Below, piece by piece: positions 1,166 through 44,125 of a stretch of 64,000 bases of DNA (position 1 is the stretch's first letter; every line of letters begins with the position of its first letter). The position numbers were made by a program, and so were the translations under genes. The DNA comes from Candidatus Omnitrophota bacterium (lineage in GTDB: Bacteria; Omnitrophota; Gorgyraeia; Gygaellales; Profunditerraquicolaceae), in contig JAZDMX010000007.1 of the NCBI GenBank assembly GCA_043800555.1, positions 26,683-90,682 of the forward strand. Direction: 5' to 3'. Under the pieces are notes generated by a model, which did no database searches, was not told the DNA's origin, and saw nothing but the letters and a program-made list of their open reading frames with translations.

Positions 1166-1831
1166 TTATAACCCCCTTGTCCCTTGATAAATCAAATACA
1201 ACCCTAAAGCCATGACTATAATAGAAGCGGCCCTCTTAAAATAAATCATCCATTTTCCTGATTTAGGCAGGCTGACCAATACGCCGCTGAATGTCCCAGC
1301 CAGAATCAAGATCAAACCCATGCCATAGGCAAAGGCCATAAGCAGGCTCATCCCGAAAAGAATATTTTTCCTGGTAGACACGTAAGCAAGAATCGTTCCC
1401 AAGGCCGGTGTCAGGCACGGAGAAGCGATTAATCCGGTAGACGCCCCTAATACAAAAGTTGAGAAATAGCCTTTCTTCCCGGTATCGGCTTTAGGGGCCT
1501 GCCAGGATAAATTGAATAAATCCAGGAGCATGCTTATCCCGAATAAAAGAACAACTGCGCCTACGGCTATCAGGGTTAATGGATTGGTGCTTATCGACCC
1601 GAAGATTTTACCGCTTAAGGAAGCAACCAAGCCTAATATAGAATAAGTAACGGCTAAGCCTGTAACAAATACCAGGCTTAAGAAAAAACCCTTTGCCTTG
1701 GAATTGCCGCTTTTAGAACTTATGTAGAAAACGGTGACCGGGATTAAAGGATAAACGCAAGGAGTGAAACTGACAAGCACTCCTCCTGTAAAAGCAAAAA
1801 TATAATCCAGCGGGCTACCGGATAGAGTCAT
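1166..1831 (-). CDS. ccdA: Cytochrome c-type biogenesis / thiol-disulfide transporter CcdA (DsbD beta-domain family)
   Basis: Polytopic membrane protein with the two conserved Cys in TM helices: SFTPCVYPLIPV and LIASPCLTPALG. Confidence 0.8.
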   Translation of the reverse strand: MTLSGSPLDYIFAFTGGVLVSFTPCVYPLIPVTVFYISSKSGNSKAKGFFLSLVFVTGLAVTYSILGLVASLSGKIFGSISTNPLTLIAVGAVVLLFGISMLLDLFNLSWQAPKADTGKKGYFSTFVLGASTGLIASPCLTPALGTILAYVSTRKNILFGMSLLMAFAYGMGLILILAGTFSGVLVSLPKSGKWMIYFKRAASIIVMALGLYLIYQGTRGL

Positions 1832-2126
1832 TTATCCAACTTAAATATGGCTTAAAACCGCTTACTATGGGCATGGCTATTATCTCCGGGACATCATAAC
1901 TATGGCTGGCCTTGACTAGCTTGGCGATCTTATTGAATTTTTCTTTTCTGGACTTTACGATAAGAAGCGTTTCTTCTACCTGATTAAGCTTGCCCTGCCA
2001 TAAAAAAAATGATTTTATGCCGCTGACGATATTAACGCAAGCTGCCAGTTTGTTCTTAATAAGCGATTTAGCGATTTTTTCCGCTTCTTTCCTCTCCTTG
2101 GCTGTAATCAGGATTATGATGTGCAT
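1815..2126 (-). CDS. cutA: Divalent-cation tolerance protein CutA
   Basis: 103 aa. ...EAEKIAKSLIKNKLAACVNIV...SFFLWQGKL...ETLLIVKS...YDVPEIIAMPI is the CutA1 signature. Confidence 0.8.
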   Translation of the reverse strand: MHIIILITAKERKEAEKIAKSLIKNKLAACVNIVSGIKSFFLWQGKLNQVEETLLIVKSRKEKFNKIAKLVKASHSYDVPEIIAMPIVSGFKPYLSWINDSIR

Positions 2127-2590
2127 TTTTTAACTAACTTTGCAAACCGGGAACCCATTCTCAAGCATTCCATACTTGAGCGCTCATCGGGGGAACCTAT
2201 CGCTACCGGGCCATAATGGTCTCCGGAGTAATCGCCTTGAATAATCATACCATGTATAAGCATGGCGTTCAAGATATCCAGGATCGCAGTTTCATTGCCT
2301 CCGGCAATATTGCGGCTGGAAGAAAATGCCGCGCCTATTTTTCCGTCAAGTTTACCGTGCAATTTAACCGAATCATCAAAGAGTTTCTTGATCTCAAAAG
2401 CCATGCTTCCGTAATAAGTAGGCGAACCGATAATCAGGCCGTCGTATTTCAATAGATCATCCACGGCTACCTCTTTGACATCTTTAACCGTTACCTCCAA
2501 CCCCTCGCTTTTTACGCCGTTAGCGATCAATTCCGCCATTTTCCTGGTATTTCCGCCCCGCGAATAGTAAACGATCAAAGTTTTCTGCAT
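2114..2590 (-). CDS. Flavodoxin family protein (FMN-binding, WrbA/flavodoxin-like)
   Basis: MQKTLIVYYSRGGNTRKMAELIA...DGLIIGSPTYYG is a flavodoxin phosphate-binding loop. The start is moved to the ATG at 2590 (MQKT); the ORF-track start at 2614 overlaps the upstream gene. Confidence 0.65.
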   Translation of the reverse strand: MQKTLIVYYSRGGNTRKMAELIANGVKSEGLEVTVKDVKEVAVDDLLKYDGLIIGSPTYYGSMAFEIKKLFDDSVKLHGKLDGKIGAAFSSSRNIAGGNETAILDILNAMLIHGMIIQGDYSGDHYGPVAIGSPDERSSMECLRMGSRFAKLVKKCTS

Positions 2591-2591
2591 A

Positions 2592-2840
2592 TCATTTGCC
2601 TCCCTCATCCTCAACCTTGACTGACCTTATCCTGCCGAATTGCGAACAAACATCAAAAACAATCGTCGGGTCTTCGGTATGTATATTTATCTTGAAGTTC
2701 TTGCCTTTTTGAGAAACATCCGCCATATCGACAACATCCAGTTTCTCTCCGAATTCAGCCAGAGCGGTTTTGAGCGCCTCCAAAGTAGTATTGTAAGTAT
2801 GTAAAATAAAATCTAATTTAAATTTTGGGGTGCGGATCAT
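2592..2840 (-). CDS. Small hypothetical protein (82 aa), possibly ACT/NIL-like fold
   Basis: Soluble, no Cys motif. Alternating hydrophobic pattern FKLDFILHTY...KINIHTEDPTIVFDV suggests a beta-alpha-beta-beta-alpha-beta fold. Not a recognisable family. Confidence 0.3.
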   Translation of the reverse strand: MIRTPKFKLDFILHTYNTTLEALKTALAEFGEKLDVVDMADVSQKGKNFKINIHTEDPTIVFDVCSQFGRIRSVKVEDEGGK

Positions 2841-3580
2841 TTTAACATAATCACCGAAAGCATTCTTCCGGATTTATTGCCTTCTTTACGGAAAGAAAAT
2901 AATTCCTCGTTAGAACAAAAGGTGCAGTAATCAGAATCAAATATATTCTCTTCTTTAACGCCTGAGTCAATCAATTGTTTTTTATTGGCTTTCGCTAAAT
3001 CAAAATACAAGCTGCCTGCCCTTTCAACCAACCCGGCGCTGAAATCGTTTACGAATTCAGGTGACACCTCATAGCAACAATCCTTTATGCGCGAGCCAAA
3101 CCCCACGGTCAATCGATTGGGATTAGCCTTAAATTTATCCAGCATTAATTCAACCGCGCAGGTAATGATATTAGCCCTGGTAGAGCGCCAGCCGGCATGC
3201 ACCAGGCCTATTGCCGGCCTTTGAGGCTCATACAGGAATATGGACAAGCAATCAGCCGTAAATATCGCCAACGGTAAATTCCTGACATCCGTAATAAAGC
3301 CGTCGGTGTCAGGAATTGATGTGTCATAATTTAAAGCGCCCCTGCCTTTATCAGCCTCATTTACATATTGAACGCGGCTACCGTGAACTTGCTTGGCGCA
3401 AACCAAATCCTTGTAATCTATGCCCAGAGAGCTTAAGAAACTTCTACGATTCTCCAGCGAACTACTGGTCTCCCCATAAGATAAGGACATATTTCCGCCG
3501 GCCCTGGCGCTAAAAGCGCTGGCCACGTTTTCTCCAACTGCGTCTTCCAGGGGATTATAACTTTTAAGTAACTTCAACAA
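2837..3580 (-). CDS. pgeF: Peptidoglycan editing factor PgeF / YfiH (DUF152, purine-nucleoside phosphorylase/laccase-domain family)
   Basis: Conserved HGSRV, FTADCLSIFL and LVHAGWRST motifs containing the Cys/His metal ligands. Confidence 0.8.
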   Translation of the reverse strand: MLKLLKSYNPLEDAVGENVASAFSARAGGNMSLSYGETSSSLENRRSFLSSLGIDYKDLVCAKQVHGSRVQYVNEADKGRGALNYDTSIPDTDGFITDVRNLPLAIFTADCLSIFLYEPQRPAIGLVHAGWRSTRANIITCAVELMLDKFKANPNRLTVGFGSRIKDCCYEVSPEFVNDFSAGLVERAGSLYFDLAKANKKQLIDSGVKEENIFDSDYCTFCSNEELFSFRKEGNKSGRMLSVIMLK

Positions 3581-9122: not shown

Positions 9123-10645
9123 TTGGCCTCTAATTTGTTAACGCTATCCAGATACGCCCGGATAGCAGCTTCGATAATATCAGTGCTTGAGCCGCGTCCG
9201 CTATAGATAGAGCTATTTATTTTTAGCTTAAGGCTCACCTGCCCCAAAGCGTCCTTACCGGAAGTAACTGCCTCAAGCCGGAAATCTTCCAGCTTTGCCC
9301 TGTACCCGGTAATTTTATCTATGGCCTTAAAACAGGCATCTACAGGGCCGTCTCCGGAGGAAACTCCGGATACAGCCTGCCTGCCGGCAGGCGGGTTTTC
9401 CGATTTTCTAATCAAAACTACCTTGGCTTCCGGTTTGATTTTTGTTCCGGAGGTAACCTCAAAACTATTCAGCTGCCAGAGCGGCTTAATCACGCTGATT
9501 TCATCTTCAACAATTGTCCTTAGGTCATCGTCATAGATATCTTTCTTTTTATCGGCGACTTCCTTGAAGCGGACAAAAGCCTTATTCAGTTGGACATCAT
9601 TCAGGCGAAACCCAAGCGCCTTGAGCCTATCGCCAAAGGCGTGCCGGCCAGAGTGTTTGCCGAGAATAAGCTGGCTAGAGGATATCCCCACATCTTTAGG
9701 GTCCATAATCTCATAGGTAGCCCTGTTCTTGAGGATCGCATCCTGATGAATTCCCGATTCATGGCTAAAGGCATTTCTTCCCACGATGGCCTTATTGGGC
9801 GGGACAACAAAATTCGTCAGGTTGCTCACCAGCCGCGAAGTGCGGAATATCTCCTTGGTGTTTATATCCATATAAAATTTCCCGAAGATATCCTTGCGCG
9901 TCTTAATCGCCATAACCACCTCTTCCAAAGAAGCATTCCCGGCGCGCTCGCCTATGCCGTTAATGGTGCAGTGGACTTGCCTGGCTCCCGCCAAGACCGC
10001 GGAAAGAGAATTAGCCGAAGCTAAACCCAGGTCATTATGGCAATGCGTGGCGATTATTGCCTTGTTAATATTGGGAACGTTATTTTTTATATCGGTAACT
10101 AGCGAAAATATTTCCTGGGGATAGCTATAACCTACAGTATCCGGAATATTAATGGTCTTTGCGCCTTCGTTAATTGCGGCTTCAATTACCTTAAAAAGAA
10201 AGCCCCTCTCTGAGCGCGTAGCATCTTCAGGGGAAAATTCAACATCATCGCAGAGGCGCCTCCCCAGTTTTACCGCGCCTTTAGCGATTTCCAGAATCTC
10301 ATCTTCGGCTTTTTTAAACTTGTATTGCAGATGGATCTTAGAAGTAGCCAAAAACAGATGGACCCGCGGCCTTTTCGCCGGTTTAAGGGCGCTGGCGGCA
10401 GATTCAATATCCGGCTTAAGGCAGCGGGCCAATCCGCAGATAACGCTTTTCTTGATGGCCTTAGAAATCTCGGCTACGGCCTTAAAATCACCGGGGGAAG
10501 CAATCGGAAAGCCGGCTTCGATTATATCCACGCCCAACCTCTCCAACTGAAAAGCAACTTCCAGTTTTTGCTGATGGGTTAAACTTGCTCCCGGCGCCTG
10601 CTCTCCGTCGCGCAATGTCGTATCGAATATTATTATTTTTTCCAT
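9119..10645 (-). CDS. leuA: 2-isopropylmalate synthase (or closely related citramalate synthase), long form with C-terminal regulatory domain
   Basis: [17 protein letters not shown] and HCHNDLGLA motifs. 508 aa with a LeuA-dimer-type C-terminal domain. Directly downstream of ilvC. Confidence 0.8.
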
Positions 10646-10756
10646 TTGCTTTTCCTTACATACTACCTCTAATGTTTCATCCCTGGCATTGATTTAGCCG
10701 TGCCTCTGGCGTTTACGGATAAATCACCCTGAGCTCTGCGAAGGGCATACCACTTA

Positions 10757-11749
10757 TTAATGTTTCATCCAGGGCATCATATCCCTCAACTCTTTGCCCA
10801 CCTTCTCAATTAAATGGTTATCTGCCTCGGAGAGCAACTTATTGAAATTCGGCCGGCCCATTTCATTTTCTTTGATCCATTCGCGGGCAAACTTTCCGGT
10901 CTTTATCTCTTTCAACATCTTTTTCATTTCTTTACGGGTTTTTTGCGTAATAATTCTCGGGCCGCGGCTTAGATCCCCGTAACAAGCGGTGTTGGAAACC
11001 CCCCTGCGCATTCCGGAAATACCCCGCTCCTGGATTAAATCGGTAATCAATTTTAACTCGTGCAAAACTTCGAAATAAGCGATCTCCGGCTGGTATCCTG
11101 CTTCGATCAGAGTGTCAAAACCTGCTTTGATTAACTCGCTCACCCCGCCGCAAAGCACTGCCTGCTCGCCGAATAGATCGGTCTCGGTCTCCTCATCAAA
11201 GGTTGTTTCGATTACTCCTGCGGTCGTAGCCTTAATTGCCTTGGCATAAGCTAACGCTAAAGCCTTGGCTTGGCCGGTTGCATCCTGATAAATAGCGATC
11301 AAAGAAGGCACGCCTTTACCCTCTTCATACATTTTCCTTACTAAAGCACCCGGCCCCTTAGGAGCGACCATAAATACATCCACGCTCTTCGGAGGCTTGA
11401 TTTGCTTAAAACGGATATTGAAACCGTGCGAGAAACATAACGCTTTGCCTTTTTTAAGGTTTGGCTTGATGGCCTCTTTGTAAACTTTGGCCTGCACATG
11501 GTCTTGAGTCAATATCTGGATAATATCGGCTGCCTTAGCCGCTTCGGCGGCTGAAACAGGAGTAAACCCATCAGCCTTAGCTTGCTCATAATTCGGGGTA
11601 CCGGGCATTTCGGAAACTACCACGTGCATCCCGGAATCCCTTAAACATAGCGACTGGCCGCGGCCCTGAATGCCATAACCGATAATCGCGATTGTTTTAT
11701 TCTTCAACAAATTCAAGTCCGCGTCTTTGTCATAATAAATCTTCGCCAT
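10757..11749 (-). CDS. ilvC: Ketol-acid reductoisomerase
   Basis: 330 aa. [21 protein letters not shown] Rossmann N-terminus and conserved C-terminal knotted domain. Confidence 0.9.
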
Positions 11750-21456: not shown

Positions 21457-23187
21457 TTATTTTAATATCTTCTTTAGCTTCGCCTGCGCAAATTCTTCAA
21501 CCTTGGCCCCAGTTGAAAAAGTTAAAGCCTCCGCAGCGATACTTTGCGCTTCTTTAAGGGAAACCGATCGAATCAAATATTTCAGCTCCGGTATTACCTG
21601 GGGAGGCATACTGAACTCATCCAGGCCTAATCCTAAAAGTATCAAAGCAAAGCTTGCTTCTCCGGCCATCTCTCCGCACATCCCGACATTAATATTGGCT
21701 TGGTGCGCGGAATCGATGATATTTTTGATCAGGCGTAAAACCGCCGGATGCGCAGGCTCATAAAGATAGGCCACCTTCTCATTGGTGCGGTCAACCGCCA
21801 AAGAATACTGGATCAAATCATTGCTTCCGATGCTAAAAAAATCCGCTTCTTTAGCCAGTATATCCGCGGTCATTGCGGCCGAGGGGACTTCAATCATCGC
21901 GCCAACCTGGATATCTTCATCAAAAGGCATACCTTTGGCCTTAAGCTCCTGCCTTGCCTCTTCAAGTATTTTGTTTGCCTGCCTTAACTCTTCGATACCG
22001 GAAATCATCGGATACATAAGTTTCAGGTTACCGTGTACCGAAGCCCTAAGGATCGCCCTTAATTGCATCCGGAATATATCCGGCCGGGCCAAACAAAACC
22101 GGATCGCCCTCCAACCCAAAAATGGATGCATTTCATGCGGAAGCTGGAATTGCGACAAAAACTTATCTCCGCCTAAATCAAGCGTGCGGATAATCACCGG
22201 ATAAGGATTCATTTCTTCAGCTACATACTTATAAGCCTGATAATGGTCTTCTTCCGTAGGCAAATCCTTCCTGTTCATATAAAAGAACTCCGTGCGGTAG
22301 AGGCCGATACCTTCGCCCCCGTGAAGTTTCACTGCCGGCACTTCTTCGGGAAATTCTATATTGGCATTTATTTCAATTTTATTGCCGTCAAGGGTAAGCG
22401 CCGGAAGATCCTTAGCCAAAAGAAACTTCTCGGCTACCCCCCTAAGTTTTACCTCCGCCGTACGATACGAATCAAGAGTTTCTTCATCGGGATTTATGAT
22501 GACGATGCCAAGAACCCCGTCTACTATCAGCGTATCCCCCTGATTAATTTTAAGGGTCGCATCCTCAACGCCGACTACTGCAGGTATCTCCAAAGATTTG
22601 GCCATAATCGCCGTATGCGAGGTCTTGCCTCCGATGTCGGTAACAAATCCGGCCACATTCTTTTTATGCATCGCCGCCGTATCCGACGGAGAGAGATCAT
22701 GCGCTACCACAACCACCCTGTCCTTGAGTTCTCCCAGGCCCCTGGCCTCTTTCCCCAAAAGATTACGCAATATCCTTTTGCCCACGTCATTTATGTCGGC
22801 GATACGCTCTTTAAGATACTCGTCTTCTATCTTGGCAAAAACAGAAATGTATTTCTTTAAAACCTCCTGGAATATAAAGGCGACATTAAGTTTGTCTTTC
22901 TTCAGCCGGGAGATTACTTCTTCGATAAGCATACGGTCTTCAAGGACAAGCAAATGAGCATCAAAAATCTGCGCCTCTTCCTGGCCCATATCCGCGCTTA
23001 TCCTCTTTTGCAGTTCAATAATCTCCCTGCGCGTACGGATTAAGGCTTCTTCGAAAAGCTGTATCTGGATTGGGATATCCGTATCAACGATAGATATTCT
23101 GGGGATAATAAACTCTTCCTTGCCTATCTTGTACGCCGTTCCGATGCTAATGCCGCCGGCAGCGGCTATGCCTTTAATCTGAATCAT
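21457..23187 (-). CDS. ptsI: Phosphoenolpyruvate-protein phosphotransferase (PTS Enzyme I)
   Basis: 576 aa. Phospho-His domain GGKTSHTAIMAKSLEIPAVVG and PEP-utilising C-terminal domain (GMCGEMAG...). Confidence 0.85.
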   Translation of the reverse strand: MIQIKGIAAAGGISIGTAYKIGKEEFIIPRISIVDTDIPIQIQLFEEALIRTRREIIELQKRISADMGQEEAQIFDAHLLVLEDRMLIEEVISRLKKDKLNVAFIFQEVLKKYISVFAKIEDEYLKERIADINDVGKRILRNLLGKEARGLGELKDRVVVVAHDLSPSDTAAMHKKNVAGFVTDIGGKTSHTAIMAKSLEIPAVVGVEDATLKINQGDTLIVDGVLGIVIINPDEETLDSYRTAEVKLRGVAEKFLLAKDLPALTLDGNKIEINANIEFPEEVPAVKLHGGEGIGLYRTEFFYMNRKDLPTEEDHYQAYKYVAEEMNPYPVIIRTLDLGGDKFLSQFQLPHEMHPFLGWRAIRFCLARPDIFRMQLRAILRASVHGNLKLMYPMISGIEELRQANKILEEARQELKAKGMPFDEDIQVGAMIEVPSAAMTADILAKEADFFSIGSNDLIQYSLAVDRTNEKVAYLYEPAHPAVLRLIKNIIDSAHQANINVGMCGEMAGEASFALILLGLGLDEFSMPPQVIPELKYLIRSVSLKEAQSIAAEALTFSTGAKVEEFAQAKLKKILK

Positions 23188-23453
23188 CGGTCATCCTCAT
23201 TAGTGATTACCTTCTCCAATTCTACCAAAGCCGCCTGCGCGTCTTCTCCCTCGGCTTCAATCATAATCACGCTATCTTTTTCCGCGCCTAACATAAGTAT
23301 CCCCATAATCGACTTGCCGTTAACTTCTTCGCTATCGTGTTTAACGGTTATGCGGGATTCAAATTTATTCGCTACCTGGACAAACAAAGCTGCCGGCCGC
23401 GCATGTAAGCCTGATTTATTCTTTACTATTAATTGTTTTCTAGCTAGCGCCAT
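23184..23453 (-). CDS. ptsH: Phosphocarrier protein HPr
   Basis: 89 aa. Active-site His in KNKSGLHARPAALFV and a regulatory Ser region (GKSIMGIL). Confidence 0.8.
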   Translation of the reverse strand: MALARKQLIVKNKSGLHARPAALFVQVANKFESRITVKHDSEEVNGKSIMGILMLGAEKDSVIMIEAEGEDAQAALVELEKVITNEDDR

Positions 23454-23472
23454 TTTAAATATGCGTGTATTT

Positions 23473-24714
23473 TTATATCTCTTCGATCAAACCCAAAACA
23501 ATCTTAGCCAGCTTCTCCGGATCATGCCTGATTACGCCTTCTTCGGTAATGCCAAATTCATCTTCGATGACCCGGTAACCCATCTCTTCGATTTTCTTCC
23601 TATCGTTAACCACCAGATACGAACCCTGCTGGGAATAACGCTTAAGCACGCTTTGCGGTATCTCTCCCGTATTTACAATACAATAATCGATGATGCGCGG
23701 GTGAGAATGCCCCACTAAAACTTTAATATGTTCGGAGGCCACAAAACCATCTGTCTCTCCCGGCTGGGTCATCGCATTACATACATAAACTTTAAGCGCC
23801 TGCGAAGAGCTGACAGCTTCCGTAATCTCCTGAATTAATAGATTAGGGATAATGCTTGTATATAACGAACCGGGGCCCAAAACAATCACCTGGGCTTCTT
23901 TTATCGCTTTAATCGCGTCAGGCGTAGCCAACGACTGCGCGGGATTTAGATAAACCTTATTTATCGAGCGATGGGTTTTGGGAATCTTGTTCTCGCCTAC
24001 CGTAGTTGTCCCGTCCTTATGCTCGGCTACTAAAACCACTTTGTTCAAAGTTGACGGAATAACCTGGCCCCTAAGGGCCAAAACCCTGCTTGTCTCTTTA
24101 ATAGCCTTCTCAAAGTCGCCGGTCAGCTGCGTCATGACCGTTATAAAAAGGTTCCCGAAGCTATGTCCCGATAACGCCGAATTCGTATCGAAACGGAACT
24201 GAAACAACTCCCGCATCAATGCCGGGGCATCGGCCAAAGCCACCAGGCAATTACGGATATCTCCCGGCGGAAGCATGCCGAATTCTTCCCTGATCCTGCC
24301 GCTGGAACCCCCATCATCGGCGACAGTAACTATTGCCGATAAATTAGTAGTAAATTGTTTTAAGCCGGTCAAAAGGACCGAAAGGCCTGTCCCTCCCCCG
24401 ATAACTACCACTTTAGGGCCGCGCGAAAGCTGCCTATTCTGATAAATTATGTCAAAAAGTTCGGCGCCCTTAGAAGAAGGCACAAACGCGGCTACAAAAG
24501 AACGCATTAAGCGTTTTATGCCAAGGATCAAGATTACAATCCCGGAAAATAAGATTATTGAATCCAGGACCTGTATGCCTAAAAACTCTTCGGCGCGCAG
24601 GTGGCTGGCGGCAAAGATTAAAAGCAAAACTCCAAAAACACTTAAAGCGATCCAACGCTTAAGCCCTATGCCGGGATAAAACCATTTGAGCATGCTATGA
24701 ATATTCTTAGTCAT
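23473..24714 (-). CDS. yvcK: Gluconeogenesis factor YvcK / CofD-like (UPF0052) with an unusual N-terminal two-TM membrane anchor
   Basis: Core VVVIGGGTGLSVLLTGLK...IVTVADDGGSSGRIREEFGMLPPGDIRNCLVALA is canonical YvcK. It is preceded by about 95 aa containing two hydrophobic helices (WIALSVFGVLLLIFAASHL; ILFSGIVILILGI). Confidence 0.75.
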   Translation of the reverse strand: MTKNIHSMLKWFYPGIGLKRWIALSVFGVLLLIFAASHLRAEEFLGIQVLDSIILFSGIVILILGIKRLMRSFVAAFVPSSKGAELFDIIYQNRQLSRGPKVVVIGGGTGLSVLLTGLKQFTTNLSAIVTVADDGGSSGRIREEFGMLPPGDIRNCLVALADAPALMRELFQFRFDTNSALSGHSFGNLFITVMTQLTGDFEKAIKETSRVLALRGQVIPSTLNKVVLVAEHKDGTTTVGENKIPKTHRSINKVYLNPAQSLATPDAIKAIKEAQVIVLGPGSLYTSIIPNLLIQEITEAVSSSQALKVYVCNAMTQPGETDGFVASEHIKVLVGHSHPRIIDYCIVNTGEIPQSVLKRYSQQGSYLVVNDRKKIEEMGYRVIEDEFGITEEGVIRHDPEKLAKIVLGLIEEI

Positions 24715-24835
24715 ATTTATGCTTCTTTTACGGCGGCAAAAGGCTTAATAAACCCCGTTAAATACCTGGCGTGTGAAAAGCCCAAGCCACAGGCAAAATC
24801 AACTTTAGCCGATATAGCCGTTATTTTGGCCCGGC

Positions 24836-25306
24836 CTAAATCTTTTTCTCGTCTTCCTGAGATATAATCTTAATAACAGCTTTATCGTCTTCGCAATTAC
24901 GCAAAGTATCGCGGAAGTATTTATCCTTAAGGAGCCGGGAGATGCGAGCCAAGGCTTTTAAGTGCGGTCCGGCAGAATCCTGAGGGGCAACCAAAAGAAA
25001 GAAAATATAAGCCAACTCGCCGTCCAAAGAATCGAAATCTACGCCTTTTTTGGAAAGGGCGAATGCCGCGACCAGATTCTCTACGCAATCAGACTTTGCG
25101 TGCGGGATAGCGATACCCTGGCCGATAGCGGTTGACCCCAGGGCTTCCCGGGCCATAAGCGATTCTATGAGCTTGGCGCGGCAGCGCTTTTCGATATCGC
25201 CGGAAGCGACAAGAACATCAACCAGCTCTTTAATGACGTCTTCTTTTTTAGTGGATTGTATGTCGGTGAGGATAGCTTTCTTAGATAAGAAATCCATAAC
25301 TTGCAT
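24836..25306 (-). CDS. ptsN: PTS EIIA type-2 domain protein (nitrogen-regulatory PtsN/EIIA-Ntr-like)
   Basis: 156 aa. Phospho-His in GQGIAIPHAKSD. Stand-alone IIA domain with no permease nearby. Confidence 0.7.
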   Translation of the reverse strand: MQVMDFLSKKAILTDIQSTKKEDVIKELVDVLVASGDIEKRCRAKLIESLMAREALGSTAIGQGIAIPHAKSDCVENLVAAFALSKKGVDFDSLDGELAYIFFLLVAPQDSAGPHLKALARISRLLKDKYFRDTLRNCEDDKAVIKIISQEDEKKI

Positions 25307-25344: not shown

Positions 25345-25420
25345 TGGAGCGGGAGGCGGGATTCGAACCCGTGACATCAACCTTGGCAAGGTTGCGCTCT
25401 ACCAGCTGAGCTACTCCCGC
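25345..25420 (-). tRNA. tRNA-Gly (anticodon GCC), CCA encoded
   Basis: Reverse complement GCGGGAGTAGCTCAGCTGGTAGAGCGCAACCTTGCCAAGGTTGAGGTCACGGGTTCGAATCCCGCCTCCCGCTCCA. Anticodon loop TTGCCAA. Canonical D and T arms. Confidence 0.85.
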
Positions 25421-25532
25421 ATTTTTTAGAAGAACGTTTCTAGCTTGCCATTAACGGCCGAAGGATTTTTTACGTGGCGGGCGCAAAAGAATCTTCCCGT
25501 AAAAATGTTTTGTTTTTAGCCGCATTTCAAAA

Positions 25533-25613
25533 TGCGGACGGAGGGACTTGAACCCCCATGAGTTTCCCCACGAGGTCCTAAGCCTCGCGCGTCTGCCATT
25601 CCGCCACGTCCGC
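25533..25613 (-). tRNA. tRNA-Leu (anticodon TAG), no encoded CCA
   Basis: Reverse complement GCGGACGTGGCGGAATGGCAGACGCGCGAGGCTTAGGACCTCG...GGGGTTCAAGTCCCTCCGTCCGCA. Anticodon loop CTTAGGA. Long variable arm. Confidence 0.8.
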
Positions 25614-25704
25614 GTTCATCAAACTTATGCCTTAGGAGGCGGGATCCCGCCTCTATCTTATTTTCAACTGGCGGGCGGGAAAATGATCCCCAGGTAAAAC
25701 TAAA

Positions 25705-25777
25705 TGAGCCTCCCGAGACTCGAACTCGGCACACGCGGCTTAAAAAGCCGCTGCTCTACCGGATGAGCTAGAGGCCC
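25705..25777 (-). tRNA. tRNA-Lys (anticodon TTT), no encoded CCA
   Basis: Reverse complement GGGCCTCTAGCTCATCCGGTAGAGCAGCGGCTTTTTAAGCCGCGTGTGCCGAGTTCGAGTCTCGGGAGGCTCA. Anticodon loop TTTTTAA. Confidence 0.75.
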
Positions 25778-35610: not shown

Positions 35611-37284
35611 TCATTTATCATAAGTGGAATAAAAATACGGGGTGTGGGCAAGAAATTCCGCGGCGCAGGTATCCACAAGCTTAAAGGTCGCTTTAATATC
35701 GAATGATTTACGTAAGCTTAAGACCTCTCCCTCTTTTTTATCCCAAAGCTTAGCCAATTGCCTGTCGCTAAAACCGAATTCCTTAAGCTCCAGCATCAGC
35801 TCCTTGGATATATTATCCTTATTCCTGATGGCCTTCTTCTCCAAATCAATAATCTCTTTAAGGTTATTCAAGAACCACCGGTCGATTTTTGTAAGCTCGA
35901 AAATCCTATCTATCCCCATTCCGCTTCGCAACGCATCGCCGATATAAAATATCCTTTCGGCTCCCGGGGACTTTAACTTTTGCTCGATATCCTTCCTGGC
36001 GCCTTTTGCGTTTTTATCCTCGAGCGACACAGCCCATTTATTATCAAATAAAATGCTCTCCAGGCCGTATTTTTTGATCTCCAGGGAACGCAATCCCTTT
36101 TGCAGCGCTTCTTTGAAAGTCCTGCCGATGGACATCGTTTCACCGACGGATTTCATGGAAACGGTTAAAACCGGATCAGCCGAAGGAAATTTCTCGAAAG
36201 TAAAACGCGGGACCTTAACTACGCAATAATCAATTGCCGGTTCAAAACAAGCGGGTGTTTCGCGGGTTATATCATTAGGTATCTCATCCAGCGTGTAACC
36301 AACGGCCAGCTTTGCGGCAATCTTAGCTATCGGGAAACCCGTTGCCTTGGAAGCAAGGGCAGAGCTCCGGGATACGCGCGGGTTCATTTCGATAATAACC
36401 ATGCGGCCGGTATCCGGATGGACGGCAAACTGTATATTCGAGCCTCCTGTCTCAACCCCAATCTCCCTGATGCAGGCAATTGCCGCATCGCGCATCTTCT
36501 GGTACTCTTTATCGGTAAGGGTTTGGACCGGGGCAACGGTAAGGCTATCTCCGGTATGCACCCCCATCGGGTCGAAATTCTCGATAGAACAGATAACCAC
36601 GCAATTGTCCTTTAAATCCCGCATAACCTCAAGTTCAAATTCTTTCCAGCCGCAGACCGACTCTTCGATCAAGATCTCGCTTATCATGCTGGACTCCAGC
36701 CCCGACTTGGCTAACCCCCTGAATTCTTCTTTGTTATAAGCTATGCTTCCGCCTGTGCCTCCTAAAGTAAAGCTCGGCCGGATAATTACCGGAAACCCAA
36801 TTGCTTTAGCGGCTTTAAAGGCTTCTTTGAGATTATAAGCTTTATTGCTGCGCGGTAAATCCAGGCCTATTTTCTTCATCGCTTCTTTAAATAACTGCCT
36901 ATCTTCTCCCTTCTTTATCGCTTTTATATTGGCCCCGATGGTTTCAACTTTATACTTATTTAATACCCCTCTTGCCGCCAAGGCCACAGTGACATTTAAG
37001 GCGGTTTGCCCCCCTAACGTAGGAAGAAGCGCATCCGGCCTCTCTTTGGCAATGATCCTTTCCAGGACTTCCGGGGTAATCGGCTCAATATAGGTAGCGA
37101 AAGCTACTTGCGGGTCAGTCATGATTGTGGCGGGATTAGAATTTACTAAAACAACCTTAAACCCCTCTTCCTTCAAGACCTTGCAAGCCTGGGTGCCGGA
37201 ATAATCAAACTCGCAAGCCTGCCCTATGACAATGGGGCCTGAGCCGATTATCAATATTTTCTTAATGTCTGTCCGCTTAGGCAT
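35611..37284 (-). CDS. carB: Carbamoyl-phosphate synthase large subunit, N-terminal half only (carboxyphosphate + oligomerisation domains); split carB
   Basis: N-terminus [26 protein letters not shown]... The protein ends ...[21 protein letters not shown], which matches E. coli CarB ...VDTCAAEF...YMYSTYEEECE at the boundary before the second synthetase repeat. Confidence 0.8.
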
Positions 37285-38655: not shown

Positions 38656-40299
<1,644 letters not shown>

Positions 40300-40371
40300 C
40301 TAAAGATCCCCGTAAACCTCGGGCTCAAAACTTGCTGCCCGGCATTAAACCGGGATCTCCCTTAAGAAAAT

Positions 40372-40407
40372 GGCGTTTTAGGGCCGAGTCTCTGGCCTAA
40401 AAACGCC
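40372..40407 (-). terminator. Rho-independent terminator candidate downstream of the HD-GYP gene
   Basis: GGCGTTTTAGGGCC-gagtctct-GGCCTAAAAACGCC. On the minus strand it is followed by CAUUUUCUU. Confidence 0.5.
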
Positions 40408-40465
40408 CTTGTTAGTTTTAGTCCTTCCCTGAATTAGAAATATTATAACACAATAATATAATATG

Positions 40466-41806
40466 TCAAACTAAATGCAGGAATTCTTTGCCTTCCGACC
40501 AGGGGCTCAAATAACGCTCTATCTTGATATTGTCCATATTTTCATTTAAATCAATTATCTCTCCGTTATTTTGCGGGTGGATAATCTTTACCCTGGGAAG
40601 GAATATGTTAGTTTCATTCTCCTGCACGACCACTCCCACCCGCTTATCGTTTAAAAGGATAATTGAGCCTACCGGCCATACGCCGATAGCTTTAAAGAAA
40701 GCGCTCAATAAATCCGGATCAAAACTCGTTTTGCTGCCGCGCATCATAAGGCCATAGATCATATCCGGAGGATAATCTGTTTTGTAGCTCCTCCTTTGCG
40801 AAAGCGCGTCATAAACATCGCAGATAGAAACAATCGCTGAAACAATGTGCTGTTTCTTTTTAAAGACGCTCTTGGGATAACCGCTCAAATCATACTTTTG
40901 GTGGTGCTCAAAACTAACTACTACCGGCATAATCCCTATAGCCTCGGTATACTCCATAAGAAGCTTGGCGCCCAGGATAGTGTGGCTCTCCATCTGCTCG
41001 AATTCCTGCACGCTAAGTTGCCCGGGCTTACGGATGGTCTTGCGGGAAATATAGAGTTTCCCTATATCATGAAACAACGCGGATATGCCTATCTCCATAA
41101 TCACGTCTTTATTAAACCCTAACTTTGAAGAAAAATGCATGCTCAATATGGAAACATTCAACAAATGGATAAATGTCCCGGTGTCGTATCTTTTTAAAGT
41201 TGCCAGCTTAAATAACTGGCCATAATAAACGCCGAGGTTATTAACGATATTATTTATCGCAAGCCTCAGGCTCAATCCATCCACAGTTTCATTATTCATG
41301 ATCTTGGTCAACGCGGGAGAAATTTGATCAAGCGAAACCTGGTAATTATTTAATAAATCCGGGTGCTCTTTCTTTTTCCCTGCATCCTCTTGAGGGGAAC
41401 CCTTAACTTTACCCACGGATATATTCCTGACTCCCGATAGGGCCAAGGATTCCTGAGGATCGCCCTTTATCTCCTCTTTAGAAAGGGCCAAGAATTCAAT
41501 GAACTTATTCAGCTCTCCAAGCCCTAAACCGCGGCTAAAGGCGATCCTTTCTATACCCCTGCCCTTTAAATATACAACCATTTGATTAAGGAATTTACTT
41601 AGATCAAAAAAGATCTCTTTCTCAAAAGCCAATTCTTCTCCGATGATCCCGATAACCAATTCTGGCCTGTCGGCTAAAACATCCTGGAGGCTAAGATAAG
41701 CTTTTTCCGCCGATTTTAAGACAATCGGATGCGACGCTCCGTAAAGCTTAGCCATCTGAAGGCAAGTCAAGAAGTCTTTAAAACAATCCCCGATATTATC
41801 GTTCAT
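40466..41806 (-). CDS. HD-GYP domain protein (probable c-di-GMP phosphodiesterase) with N-terminal DUF3391-like domain
   Basis: HD-GYP signatures LFHDIGKLYIS ... FEHHQKYDLSGYPKS ... ICDVYDALSQRRSYK. The N-terminal about 110 aa is paralogous to the N-terminus of the upstream 637-aa protein. Confidence 0.75.
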   Translation of the reverse strand: MNDNIGDCFKDFLTCLQMAKLYGASHPIVLKSAEKAYLSLQDVLADRPELVIGIIGEELAFEKEIFFDLSKFLNQMVVYLKGRGIERIAFSRGLGLGELNKFIEFLALSKEEIKGDPQESLALSGVRNISVGKVKGSPQEDAGKKKEHPDLLNNYQVSLDQISPALTKIMNNETVDGLSLRLAINNIVNNLGVYYGQLFKLATLKRYDTGTFIHLLNVSILSMHFSSKLGFNKDVIMEIGISALFHDIGKLYISRKTIRKPGQLSVQEFEQMESHTILGAKLLMEYTEAIGIMPVVVSFEHHQKYDLSGYPKSVFKKKQHIVSAIVSICDVYDALSQRRSYKTDYPPDMIYGLMMRGSKTSFDPDLLSAFFKAIGVWPVGSIILLNDKRVGVVVQENETNIFLPRVKIIHPQNNGEIIDLNENMDNIKIERYLSPWSEGKEFLHLV

Positions 41807-43716
41807 TCCCAGGTCTCCAGCACCTTAAGCGCCTTACTCCTTAACTGCCTGTTCCAAAAAAACCTTCTCTTGCTCAAAATCGCCAAATAATCCCGGGCCT
41901 TTCTTGCGTTTAATTCTTCCACAACCAGGATATTTTCTAAAATCAACCGGTTCTTCAGTCCCCACGGGCTGGGAATGCCCAAAAGGATACCCGCTGCCCT
42001 TTGGAGAGCGGCTTCGTCTTTAAGTAAAACCGCCAACGCCTCTTTCTTTAAAATTGTGTTTTCCCCTTTAAGTATGGAAAACAGGAATTCCGAATCAAAA
42101 ATCTTGCTTGAACGCATCCCCCTTAGCACTTCAATCTTAATCAAGTCGTTGCCAAAAAAGAATATTTCTTTTAAAACCGCCGAAGAAACCCCTAAATCGA
42201 TACGGCTTACTATTCTTATGATCCGGCCTAAGAATTCAAAGTCGGAATATTTCTCCTTCAAACGCTCGTAGAATACGCCCATTTGCGAAGGAAAAAACTT
42301 CAAGAATAGCTTTACTCCGCATACGCTCGGGTTCTTTTCTTCAAATATCCTATCGAGGTAGGAAGCGGCCGGTTTGGAAATATTTTCTAAATTTTCGGCT
42401 AAATATTCCAATTCCCCGGATGGCTCTGCCTCCCAAATGCAATCCTCAACTAGCCGGGAAATATGCGCCCGGGCATTCTCCGCAAGGTCCCGGGGCATTC
42501 CCCACTTATATTGCTTCAAGGTAATTGATAAATCCTTCAAGAACCCGAAATCTTTCTCCTTAGCCAGATCATCCCATTCATTATCCAGCCTTTTTAGGAT
42601 AAGCGAGAGGTGTTCCGGGGTCTCCTCCTGCGATAATAAATCAAGGATAATCATGCGGTAATTGACGCGAAGCTGCCGGCGGTCAAAGAGAAAGCTTCCC
42701 GTTGGAGAAATGTCTCTGGTCAAGGCAATAAGGGCGCTACGGTAAGTATCCGGGATCATCCCCTCATCCGAGCCGGATAATAAATCCGTTATCCTTTTAA
42801 GCATCGCGGGGTTATTCTTTAATCCTGCTTTAGCCTCTGCGTTATTTGCCAACCCCGAGGCAATTCTCTCCGTATGAGCCTCACCGGCAAGCCGGGAAAA
42901 TAACCCAAGGTTCAAAATATTTAGCTTACCGCTTGCTAACTGGGAGGAAATGGCGTCGGAAAGGTCTTTATCGTCAAAATTCCTGAATATCTCTTGCAAT
43001 TTCCCGATGTTTTCGGCGTTAACCTGGGTAGCGGAATTGATTATTAATCCGGAGAGCTCCCGGGAACACTCGGAGAATTTACCTTTATCCCTGTTTTTTA
43101 AATGCCCGAGGAAAGCAGACATATTACCCCTTAACTTATCATCCTCGACAATATCTTTAACGCTAAGGTTATTGACCCCCTTTATGAAATTAACCGCAAA
43201 TTCGGTAATTTTCCGTTCATCCCGGCCTTCCATTGTATGCTGAAACATATACAGCCAGACATCCTTGACATCTTCTCCCTGCGAGCCTAATAATGCCGAA
43301 TAATCCAGGTCTTCAACAAAGATATGCTGGATTCTTTCTTTTCTCAATAATCCGCCTAGGCCTCCGGACCTTATTATTTCTTTAGGCTGTAAAGACAATA
43401 TGCTTAAGAAATCCGCCAGCTCTTCGGCGGTTAGGGCCGGCTTGAACTCTATGCTTTTAATCTTACGCTGGTGCAATGTGCGGGCCAACTCTAAAGAAAA
43501 GGCGACCTTTTCCACAACTTTCCCGTCTAGAAACAATGATTCAGAAGATACGCCTACTCTTACGGAATTTAAGAAGTTAAATACTTGGTCTATTTTATCT
43601 TTAAAGTCTTGGGCGGTTTTCAGGAAGAATGGGTGCTGGCGGGAATAGGCCAGGGAGTTATTGATGGCAGCGCGCAGACCGTTTAGGAATTCAATCAGGG
43701 CCTCTTCTTTGTTCAT
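41803..43716 (-). CDS. Large (637 aa) predominantly alpha-helical hypothetical protein sharing its N-terminal domain with the downstream HD-GYP protein
   Basis: Long uninterrupted ORF with a 4-nt ATGA overlap to the HD-GYP gene. N-terminus LIEFLNGLRAAINNSLAYSRQHPFFLKTAQDF...ELADFLSILSL parallels FKDFLTCLQMAKLYGASHPIVLKSAEKAY...ELNKFIEFLAL of the HD-GYP protein. Confidence 0.6.
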   Translation of the reverse strand: MNKEEALIEFLNGLRAAINNSLAYSRQHPFFLKTAQDFKDKIDQVFNFLNSVRVGVSSESLFLDGKVVEKVAFSLELARTLHQRKIKSIEFKPALTAEELADFLSILSLQPKEIIRSGGLGGLLRKERIQHIFVEDLDYSALLGSQGEDVKDVWLYMFQHTMEGRDERKITEFAVNFIKGVNNLSVKDIVEDDKLRGNMSAFLGHLKNRDKGKFSECSRELSGLIINSATQVNAENIGKLQEIFRNFDDKDLSDAISSQLASGKLNILNLGLFSRLAGEAHTERIASGLANNAEAKAGLKNNPAMLKRITDLLSGSDEGMIPDTYRSALIALTRDISPTGSFLFDRRQLRVNYRMIILDLLSQEETPEHLSLILKRLDNEWDDLAKEKDFGFLKDLSITLKQYKWGMPRDLAENARAHISRLVEDCIWEAEPSGELEYLAENLENISKPAASYLDRIFEEKNPSVCGVKLFLKFFPSQMGVFYERLKEKYSDFEFLGRIIRIVSRIDLGVSSAVLKEIFFFGNDLIKIEVLRGMRSSKIFDSEFLFSILKGENTILKKEALAVLLKDEAALQRAAGILLGIPSPWGLKNRLILENILVVEELNARKARDYLAILSKRRFFWNRQLRSKALKVLETWE

Positions 43717-43800: not shown

Positions 43801-43857
43801 ATGGGGACGTTTCTACTTTTCCCGGCCTGGTTACCAGAAAAGTAGAAACGTCCCCAT
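43801..43857 (-). terminator. Strong hairpin (20-bp perfect stem, 17-nt loop) terminating the atp operon
   Basis: ATGGGGACGTTTCTACTTTT-cccggcctggttaccag-AAAAGTAGAAACGTCCCCAT. U-rich flank on the minus strand (CUUCCUUUCUU) and TTTAT on the plus strand. Confidence 0.6.
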
Positions 43858-43873
43858 TTTATACCACTCCTGT

Positions 43874-44124
43874 TTAGAACAAGAGCACGGTGGCCTTGTT
43901 CCTGACAACCTCAATAAAGCCTTTTCCGTTATTGTTGATTACCGTTTCTTTTCCCTGATTATCCCTGTAAGTTATCCTGCCGCAAGCTAAACTCGCGATT
44001 AAGGGGGCATGATCTGCTAAAACGCCTAAATATCCTAATGCCGCCGGGACCACCAAAGAGCAAACCTCGCCCGTAAATATCGTCTTTTCCGGCATCAATA
44101 TATCAAGCTCAAAGATTTTCTCCA

Positions 44125-44125
<1 letters not shown>
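43874..44125 (-). CDS. atpC: F1 ATP synthase epsilon subunit, truncated form (beta-sandwich only, 83 aa)
   Basis: ...TIFTGEVCSLVVPAALGYLGVLADHAPLIASL...GKGFIEV is the epsilon N-terminal domain. No C-terminal helical hairpin. Overlaps the atpD stop. Confidence 0.75.

Follow-up and report, generated by a model that had tools for sequence, protein, structure and literature searches.

An overlapping gene pair conserved in Omnitrophota encodes a predicted HD-GYP phosphodiesterase and a non-catalytic protein that share a previously undescribed N-terminal module

Within a 64,000-nucleotide stretch of a Candidatus Omnitrophota genome (contig JAZDMX010000007.1; hereafter, the window), two overlapping minus-strand genes encode proteins with homologous N-terminal modules. 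We refer to the upstream gene as A and to the downstream gene as B. B encodes an HD-GYP protein whose motifs predict hydrolysis of cyclic di-GMP (c-di-GMP), and A encodes a protein without a known enzymatic domain, from a conserved family of ~640 amino acids (aa) that lacks annotation. The reading that we favor, with a probability of roughly 0.5, sees in B a soluble class-II phosphodiesterase for c-di-GMP, binuclear and catalytically competent, that works together with A, its dedicated non-catalytic partner, in a heteromeric or scaffolded enzyme. Searches of a literature library found no description of the A-B pair or of the A family. Coordinates are collected in Table 1.

The two open reading frames (ORFs) meet in an ATGA stop/start overlap, read as tgg gaA TGA for the end of A and ATG aac for the start of B. 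An earlier, sequence-only reading, made by a model without database searches, had described both ORFs and this junction, and its coordinates are exact. To assess conservation, we ran a pattern scan on one genome per species, from which 80 loci were kept; an A relative is encoded in 102 species-representative genomes. Most of these genomes are labeled Omnitrophota, and approximately 10 are labeled Aminicenantes or Acidobacteriota, including one 4.28-Mb chromosome; the labels of a few binned metagenome-assembled genomes (MAGs) among the A-carrying genomes are implausible. Complete genomes with the pair include CP070807.1 and OY970261.1. In all 83 loci with downstream DNA, a B ortholog lies directly downstream of A on the same strand (phmmer E values from 1e-20 to 1e-249, the weakest for copies cut at a contig end). 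At the two A loci without B, the contig edge was reached. A and B overlap by 1–17 nucleotides (nt) in 81 of the 83 junctions, and at the other two the genes are separated by 10 and 48 nt. Overlap lengths were 11 nt in 37 junctions, 17 nt in 17, 8 nt in 9, 10 nt in 6, and 4 nt in 5, and a GGAG similar to that of the window precedes the ATG of B in most orthologous junctions. Conservation of the pair and of its overlap had been named in the sequence-only reading as a point to check: the pair is conserved throughout and so is its tight coupling, whereas the exact ATGA form is restricted to near relatives of the window.

The converse look-up gave the same picture. Starting from three B-family proteins on long contigs, we found an overlapping ~640-aa gene without a Pfam domain directly upstream in all three cases, and at one of these loci the neighbors are entirely unrelated. 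The pair is kept where every neighboring gene differs, as in the Aminicenantes-labeled loci and in L087, one of the related loci (numbered L001–L088). Both ORFs are full-length in >80 species. Based on the conserved stop/start overlap, A and B form a translationally coupled pair, and translation of B is predicted to depend on that of A.

A single segment of similarity connects the two proteins. Using BLASTP, we aligned residues 24–114 of A to residues 22–113 of B (26% aa identity over 92 aa, one gap, E = 2e-4), and no other similar segment was identified. Single-sequence phmmer searches produced cross-matches between the N-termini of the two families in many genomes, with E values down to 1e-9. 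In an hhalign comparison of the family profiles (79 A and 76 B sequences), residues 5–146 of A aligned to residues 3–143 of B (Prob 97.4, E = 1.6e-11) and nothing else aligned; alignments limited to the module (26 sequences each) gave Prob 98.85 and E = 4e-17 over 132 columns. By these comparisons, the two N-terminal modules are homologous, reflecting an ancient duplication whose copies now sit on two proteins. The sequence-only reading had proposed a shared paralogous domain of ~110 aa aligned "residue-for-residue," and it had allowed that the similarity might fall below significance in profile searches, which is not the case. The domain is in fact ~135–145 aa long; the alignment is nearly ungapped, but identity between A and B is only 21–26%. 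Module-bearing ORFs number exactly two per locus, with none elsewhere in the window and in ~1 Mb of related loci. Further HD-GYP-type genes occur near the A-B pair in two genomes (L058, positions 1219–3354; L071, positions 9768–10994), and both lack the module; those organisms therefore have several HD-GYP proteins, of which the module marks only the A-B pair.

AlphaFold2 (AF2) models of A and of B residues 1–205, built from separate alignments, give the module the same topology in both proteins. In A, the elements (H, helix; E, strand) are H3-23, H29-46, E52-56, E61-63, H74-83, E86-91, H97-107, H111-126, and E132-136, with a predicted local distance difference test (pLDDT) score of ~85–93; in B, they are H2-22, H27-44, E49-55, E58-61, E64-66, H71-82, E87-91, H96-107, H117-123, and E129-132, with pLDDT ~85. 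Both models thus begin with two long helices, continue with a two- or three-stranded meander, and end in the order helix-strand-helix-helix-strand. Seven positions are conserved in both paralogs (B/A numbering): Y22/Y24, H26-P27/H28-P29, L59/L61, E98-L99/E99-L100, and I129/I132. At two other homologous positions, the charges are swapped between the families and conserved within each, as E86 and K133 of B correspond to K87 and E136 of A. This swap is either a compensatory salt bridge within each molecule or a feature that sets the specificity of an interface.

Our searches did not match the module to a known domain. The sequence-only reading had noted that the N-terminus of B occupies the position of a DUF3391-type sensor domain; the position is the same, but the identity is not. 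No match to DUF3391 (PF11871) was found for B at E≤1 or for 26 diverse B N-termini at E≤10, and no Pfam family matched those 26 consistently. DUF3391 consists of four strands followed by two long helices (HD-GYP census, 10.1101/2021.11.05.467447), and the helix-first order in the A and B models therefore also argues that the module is not DUF3391. Searches of PDB sequences with the A-module and B-module profiles identified no relative of solved structure, and Foldseek returned no significant match for the module in the PDB; ~20 of its top 50 matches were GAF-like small-molecule-binding folds, none of them significant (E≥0.27, template modeling [TM] score ~0.15). A search with B residues 1–205 against a word-indexed database returned truncated fragments only and no new architecture. 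We then used hmmsearch with a combined A+B module profile exhaustively against 1.84 billion representative sequences, which yielded 5903 matching proteins with E≤1e-3; of these, 2029 reached E≤1e-10 and 191 reached E≤1e-30. Among the best 150 of the 5903, 143 were new to the analysis (130 A-type, 4 B-type, and 9 too short to classify); none of these 143 had another architecture, and the module was always at the extreme N-terminus. Judged by these searches, the module is a previously undescribed conserved domain family.

Protein B had been called an HD-GYP phosphodiesterase, and its catalytic domain is intact. The Pfam families HD and HD_5 together cover residues 211–366, and the protein contains the motifs HDIGK and HHQKYDLSGYP. 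At E≤1e-60, homologs fall into 1119 clusters, and identity to B is ≥52% for the best 120 of these. The closest solved structures, for the catalytic part only, are PmGH (4mcw, E = 6e-20), V-cGAP3 (5z7c), and PA4781 (4r8z). The alignment to PmGH is ungapped over 171 residues, and by this alignment the core metal ligands H214, H246-D247, H275, H301-H302, and D330 of B map to PmGH H189, H221, D222, H250, H276, H277, and D305. Across 76 orthologs, each of these ligands is ≥95% conserved, as are K260 of the K260-P-G motif and R339, Y341, and K342 of the R339-S-Y-K342 motif; within the GYP motif, G309 is present in 75 of 76 orthologs and Y310 and P311 in all 76. The KPG and RxY[K/R] motifs bind the two guanines of c-di-GMP and set specificity, whereas RxxQ/N shifts it to cyclic GMP-AMP (cGAMP) (10.1101/2021.11.05.467447). 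Since B keeps KPG and RxYK, it is predicted to be specific for c-di-GMP, and the cGAMP-type substrate that had been entertained as an alternative is disfavored. Position 210 of B, which is equivalent to the third-metal ligand E185 of PmGH, is Gly in the window (in the family, n = 76: G in 21, E in 21, and other residues in the remainder), which predicts a binuclear rather than a trinuclear enzyme for the window copy; binuclear HD-GYP enzymes mostly stop at pGpG (10.1101/2021.11.05.467447). On these motifs, B is an intact HD-GYP protein of the c-di-GMP type, and hydrolysis of c-di-GMP is its predicted activity.

Between the module and the catalytic domain of B lies a linker in an S-helix-like position. 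AF2 assigned pLDDT <50 to residues 136–156 and ~50–55 to two long helices at residues 149–171 and 177–204, and this is the least conserved part of the protein (36% identity). The C-terminal extension past the HD-GYP core carries the motif GVWPxGSxxxLxDxRxxVV... and has a beta-rich look from its sequence, with 49% mean identity over residues 376–446. No segment sufficiently hydrophobic for a transmembrane helix was found in A or B. As candidates for a defense system (PADLOC), both were rejected: A had no match, and B showed only generic HD similarity to the HD domains of Cas10 and Cas3 (E = 5e-4 and 5e-3).

Protein A had been described as lacking a catalytic motif and continuing as ~500 aa of helix-rich sequence, and both points hold. 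Searches of Pfam and NCBIfam (E≤1) gave no match, and a search of PDB sequences gave a single chance-level match (E = 0.35). Homologs of A form 68 clusters, nearly all full-length (~640 aa) and none with a Pfam domain; a database protein 100% identical to A is annotated as "hypothetical protein" in a Candidatus Omnitrophota MAG. The AF2 model of A (overall pLDDT 86, and 90–95 for residues 450–637) is all-helical after the module, with 31 helices between residues 148 and 636. Foldseek matched this model to importin-alpha, SF3B1, PP2A-A, and the large subunits of AP-1 and AP-2 (E = 1e-4 to 5e-3, prob up to 1.0, TM 0.1–0.25). The sequence-only reading had pointed to HEAT, TPR, or ARM repeats as candidates for this region; the fold matches are ARM/HEAT-like, but no Pfam ARM/HEAT family matched at E≤1 and self-hhalign detected no internal repeat. 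For A, mean identity is 45% in the module, 30% in the middle, and 41% in the C-terminal third. Based on the model, the C-terminal region of A belongs to the ARM/HEAT-like solenoid fold class and has no known enzymatic domain. A degenerate HD-GYP origin of A was considered and rejected, as the full-length profile match is confined to the N-terminal module and the fold matches are solenoids, not HD domains.

In the mechanism that we propose, A and B would be made together in near-equal amounts and would then associate, most simply through pairing of their modules as a pseudo-homodimer. The conserved C-terminal solenoid of A may also contact the B module, as the co-variation of sequence distances described below suggests. 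A would regulate or scaffold the phosphodiesterase by positioning or gating it, and the outcome would be localized or conditional degradation of c-di-GMP. Heteromer formation through the shared domain, which the sequence-only reading had suggested, fits the conserved overlap, the strict co-occurrence, and a mirror-tree analysis. In that analysis, in which shared phylogeny is a confounder and the correlations have no significance test, the A-module and B-module were the best-correlated segment pair (r = 0.77, partial 0.39); the A C-terminus and B-module came next among inter-protein pairs (partial 0.35), and both inter-protein partials exceed most within-protein partials. This signal lends weak support to association of A and B.

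Several observations weigh against a complex of A with a c-di-GMP phosphodiesterase. The evidence for an A-B interaction is indirect, and a set of 75 sequence pairs is too small to resolve co-evolution at single residues. Polar residues are among those that both paralogs conserve (Y, H-P, E-L), and they point to a common ligand or functional site no less than to an interface; the charge swap could be an intramolecular pair or could favor homodimers over heterodimers. B also departs from the full HHExh(D/N)GxGYP signature. The window protein has HHQKYDLSGYP and the family consensus is HHLKYDLSGYP. Across the family, L (67 of 76) or Q stands in place of the E, and L, S, or M in place of the G before xGYP, while HH, D, and GYP are retained. 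Finally, among the 50 main ORFs scanned across the window, none encodes GGDEF, EAL, or PilZ, as the sequence-only reading had noted for the vicinity of the pair; because neither a diguanylate cyclase nor a c-di-GMP receptor was found in the window, the substrate is deduced from the motifs of B only.

The main rival to a heteromer holds that the module is a ligand-binding domain and that A and B act separately, probably as homodimers, in response to the same small molecule. The ligand would be a metabolite or c-di-GMP, B would be an "eraser" and A a solenoid effector or adaptor, and co-transcription would provide co-regulation only. We regard this as unlikely. Several polar residues (Y22/Y24, H26-P27/H28-P29, and E98/E99) are invariant in both paralogs at ~21% identity, and the module takes the usual place of an HD-GYP sensor domain; the GAF-like folds among its Foldseek matches point the same way, albeit without significance. 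Moreover, if residues 86 and 133 touch across a symmetric interface, the charge swap would disfavor heterodimers. However, the near-universal stop/start overlap and the strict 1:1 co-occurrence exceed the needs of co-regulation, the distance correlation between the A-module and B-module is the highest of all segment pairs, no ligand can be named, and the GAF-like fold matches are poor (E≥0.27, TM ~0.15). A related but more doubtful alternative takes the module to be a very divergent GAF domain or another known small-molecule-binding domain, which would make B an ordinary GAF-HD-GYP protein of the PmGH type with only its partner unusual. GAF-HD-GYP is a known and common architecture, PmGH is the closest solved catalytic domain, and PelD, phytochrome, PDE2/6, NifA GAF, and IclR/LuxR ligand-binding domains are enriched among the non-significant Foldseek matches; the GAF-type domain of PmGH shows no detectable relation to the module by sequence and resembles it by fold only faintly, if at all.

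B could instead be a housekeeping nucleotide hydrolase for linear products such as pGpG or nanoRNA, with A as an assembly, stability, or targeting factor; in that case, the proximity of nucleotide and nitrogen metabolism genes would reflect a functional link. The pair lies within core DNA (the atp operon, pyrG, carAB, and a beta-CASP RNase), its recurrent neighbors are glutamate dehydrogenase (GDH) or glutamate synthase and pyrG/carAB, and it occurs as one copy per examined locus, a conserved ortholog rather than a lineage-specific expansion of paralogs. The missing third-metal Glu of the window copy and the failure to find GGDEF, EAL, and PilZ in the window also agree with such a role. We nevertheless consider it improbable: KPG and RxYK, which bind both guanines of cyclic di-GMP, are ≥95% conserved, and binuclear HD-GYP enzymes generally stop at pGpG rather than consume it. 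In addition, A and B (34% and 51% median identity) evolve much faster than their neighbors (66–90%), the shared neighborhood may be inherited order, and this neighborhood is lost in the Aminicenantes-labeled loci and L087 while the pair stays. That the N-terminal resemblance arose by chance or composition, or that the ORFs are not real genes, has a negligible probability. The pairwise identity of only 26% with a modest E value of 2e-4 could be read in that way, but the reciprocal cross-family phmmer matches in many genomes and both hhalign comparisons (to E = 4e-17) refute it, and the identical predicted topology in two independent models and the full-length ORFs in >80 species point in the same direction.

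Returning to the partner model, B resembles the DUF3391-, GAF-, and REC-linked HD-GYP families in layout only. The Bd1817/PA4108 family (DUF3391-HD-GYP; COG2206) is similar in being a soluble single polypeptide with an N-terminal alpha/beta domain of ~120–140 aa and long helices leading to a C-terminal catalytic domain, and DUF3391 too is found almost only with HD-GYP; however, the window module has no PF11871 match and places its helices first, not after four strands, and the census describes no dedicated partner gene with a paralogous DUF3391. PmGH of Persephonella marina (4MCW; GAF-HD-GYP) shares with B the seven core metal ligands, KPG, GYP, and RxYK, but it is trinuclear through Glu185, where window B has Gly, and it has no A-type partner. 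PA4781 of P. aeruginosa (4R8Z) and other binuclear HD-GYP proteins lack an E185-type acidic residue, as does window B; PA4781 is REC-regulated according to the architecture lists of the census, not module-regulated, and has no paralogous-domain partner.

The logic of a c-di-GMP enzyme acting with a related non-enzymatic protein is familiar from the degenerate receptors LapD, PelD, and BcsE and from RpfG-GGDEF interactions, and HD-GYP proteins do join regulatory protein-protein interactions. In those systems, the catalytic domain is duplicated and degenerate, whereas here the accessory module is duplicated and, in A, an unrelated solenoid replaces the catalytic domain. The fold class of A is that of importin-alpha, the PP2A A subunit, and the AP-complex large subunits, although at TM 0.1–0.25 and with no detectable sequence repeats in A this is a likeness of fold class and not evidence of homology. 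The A subunit of PP2A is well known as a solenoid on which a metallo-phosphoesterase is scaffolded.

Table 1. Positions of the A-B gene pair, its protein segments, and flanking elements (window coordinates)
Feature	Position	Strand	Basis or remark
Gene A, 637-aa non-catalytic protein of a conserved, unannotated ~640-aa family	41803..43716	-	ORF
Gene B, 446-aa HD-GYP phosphodiesterase (predicted)	40466..41806	-	ORF; Pfam HD 2e-11, HD_5 5e-11
ATGA stop/start overlap of A and B, 4 nt	41803..41806	-	Sequence
GGAG inside the A 3' end, Shine-Dalgarno-like for B	41815..41818	-	9–12 nt upstream of the B start codon
A residues 1–146, shared alpha/beta module (A copy)	43279..43716	-	hhalign vs B module; AF2
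B residues 1–143, shared alpha/beta module (B copy)	41378..41806	-	hhalign vs A; AF2
Charge-swap residue A 87	~43456-43458	-	Alignment
Charge-swap residue A 136	~43309-43311	-	Alignment
Charge-swap residue B 86	~41549-41551	-	Alignment
Charge-swap residue B 133	~41408-41410	-	Alignment
A residues 148–637, predicted irregular alpha-solenoid, ARM/HEAT-like	41806..43275	-	AF2, Foldseek
B residues 144–205, predicted disordered stretch and two long helices (linker)	41192..41377	-	AF2
B residues 206–385, HD-GYP catalytic domain	40652..41191	-	Pfam; alignment to 4mcw
B residues 386–446, conserved C-terminal extension	40469..40651	-	Alignment; no Pfam match
Terminator-like hairpin after atpC, ~22-bp stem and U-rich tract	43801..43857	-	-42.6 kcal/mol, z = -7.2; 0/200 shuffles as stable
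Candidate sigma-70-like promoter TTGAAC-16-TAAAAT, just upstream of the A start codon	43726..43753	-	9/12 consensus matches
Perfect sigma-70 consensus TTGACA-16-TG-TATAAT overlapping the B stop codon	40442..40469	-	12/12 matches

The pair has recognizable boundaries on both sides. Upstream, the hairpin that follows atpC is probably the terminator of the atp operon, and downstream, the perfect sigma-70 site at the end of B is probably the promoter of pyrG. Set between this strong hairpin and this consensus promoter, A-B looks like an autonomous bicistron. The candidate promoter of A itself is weak evidence, as sites like it are no commoner in the region than in shuffles. No riboswitch or other known RNA was found near the pair. 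Within 40291–40469 (minus strand), the perfect sigma-70 site is followed by a pyrG leader of ~150 nt, which contains a hairpin and U-tract at ~40408–40365 and then a second long hairpin; it is a possible transcription attenuator, with no Rfam match and a fold z of only -2.4.

The gene content of the window is core metabolism, including the atp operon, pyrG, carAB, ilv/leu, glycolysis, the S-adenosylmethionine cycle, rpsB-tsf-pyrH-frr, and nuo, as well as a beta-CASP RNase. At Omnitrophota loci, the pair is usually preceded immediately by GDH or a glutamate-synthase cluster and followed by pyrG/carAB or DUF1846. Among loci L001–L088, the glutamate-forming side has GDH in 29 and a cluster of gltD, a DHODB-type iron-sulfur subunit, and a small Glu_synthase in 15–38, and the glutamine-using side has pyrG, carA, and carB in 28–33, or DUF1846. 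A location between glutamate-forming and glutamine-using genes could be a link to nitrogen status. However, we downgraded a functional link of the pair to the glutamate/glutamine and pyrimidine genes: median identity to the window is 51% for B and 34% for A but 66–90% for the neighboring housekeeping genes, and the neighborhood is absent from the Aminicenantes-labeled loci and L087, where the pair persists, so inherited gene order is a sufficient explanation.

Other features of the window were recorded in passing. The ATP synthase epsilon subunit (43874–44125, minus strand) is 83 aa long and consists of the beta-sandwich domain only (PF02823, residues 5–81), without the C-terminal helical inhibitory domain; its orthologs in L086 and L088 have 86 aa. 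The carB gene beside carA (35611–37284, minus strand) encodes ~555 aa, half of the usual ~1070, with preATP-grasp, ATP-grasp, and oligomerization domains. A half-size carB likewise occurs in L001 (10583–12244), L004 (11130–12794), and L086 (6613–8274), which suggests a split or half-size large subunit of carbamoyl-phosphate synthase in these lineages. At 21457–25306 (minus strand), genes for a phosphotransferase system (PTS) enzyme I homolog (576 aa), a CofD/YvcK-family protein (413 aa), and an EIIA-2 (PtsN-like) protein (156 aa) adjoin three tRNA genes (25348–25777); this PTS may be regulatory and of the nitrogen type rather than for sugar transport.

Most HD-GYP proteins have undefined N-terminal regions that respond to signals not yet known and contain domains still to be delineated (10.1101/2021.11.05.467447). 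HD-GYP enzymes are the least understood of the c-di-GMP enzymes, and here one such region has been delimited as a domain family: a known enzyme class is joined to a new accessory domain family and to a new, dedicated partner with a paralogous domain. Thousands of representative clusters match the module profile, and its ancient paralog is carried by a co-translated, non-enzymatic, unannotated solenoid protein. The remaining matches among the 5903 could hide further output domains, in which case the module would be a new general signaling input domain. A broader and rather speculative reading, which we hold to be doubtful, is that the pair represents a new c-di-GMP "eraser + solenoid effector" unit, core to Omnitrophota and present in Aminicenantes; the module would then be a new family of nucleotide- or second-messenger-binding domains or of obligate heterodimerization domains, and A would be a new class of adaptor that recruits the phosphodiesterase to targets or acts as a receptor. 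That c-di-GMP enzymes should have regulatory subunits is not in itself a surprising idea. The ~640-aa "hypothetical proteins" encoded in at least 102 species-level genomes now have a testable role. If the complex of A and B is real, it would clearly illustrate how an HD-GYP phosphodiesterase can depend on an obligate subunit for scaffolding or regulation, and it would provide a first functional handle on second-messenger signaling in Omnitrophota, a largely uncultured phylum.

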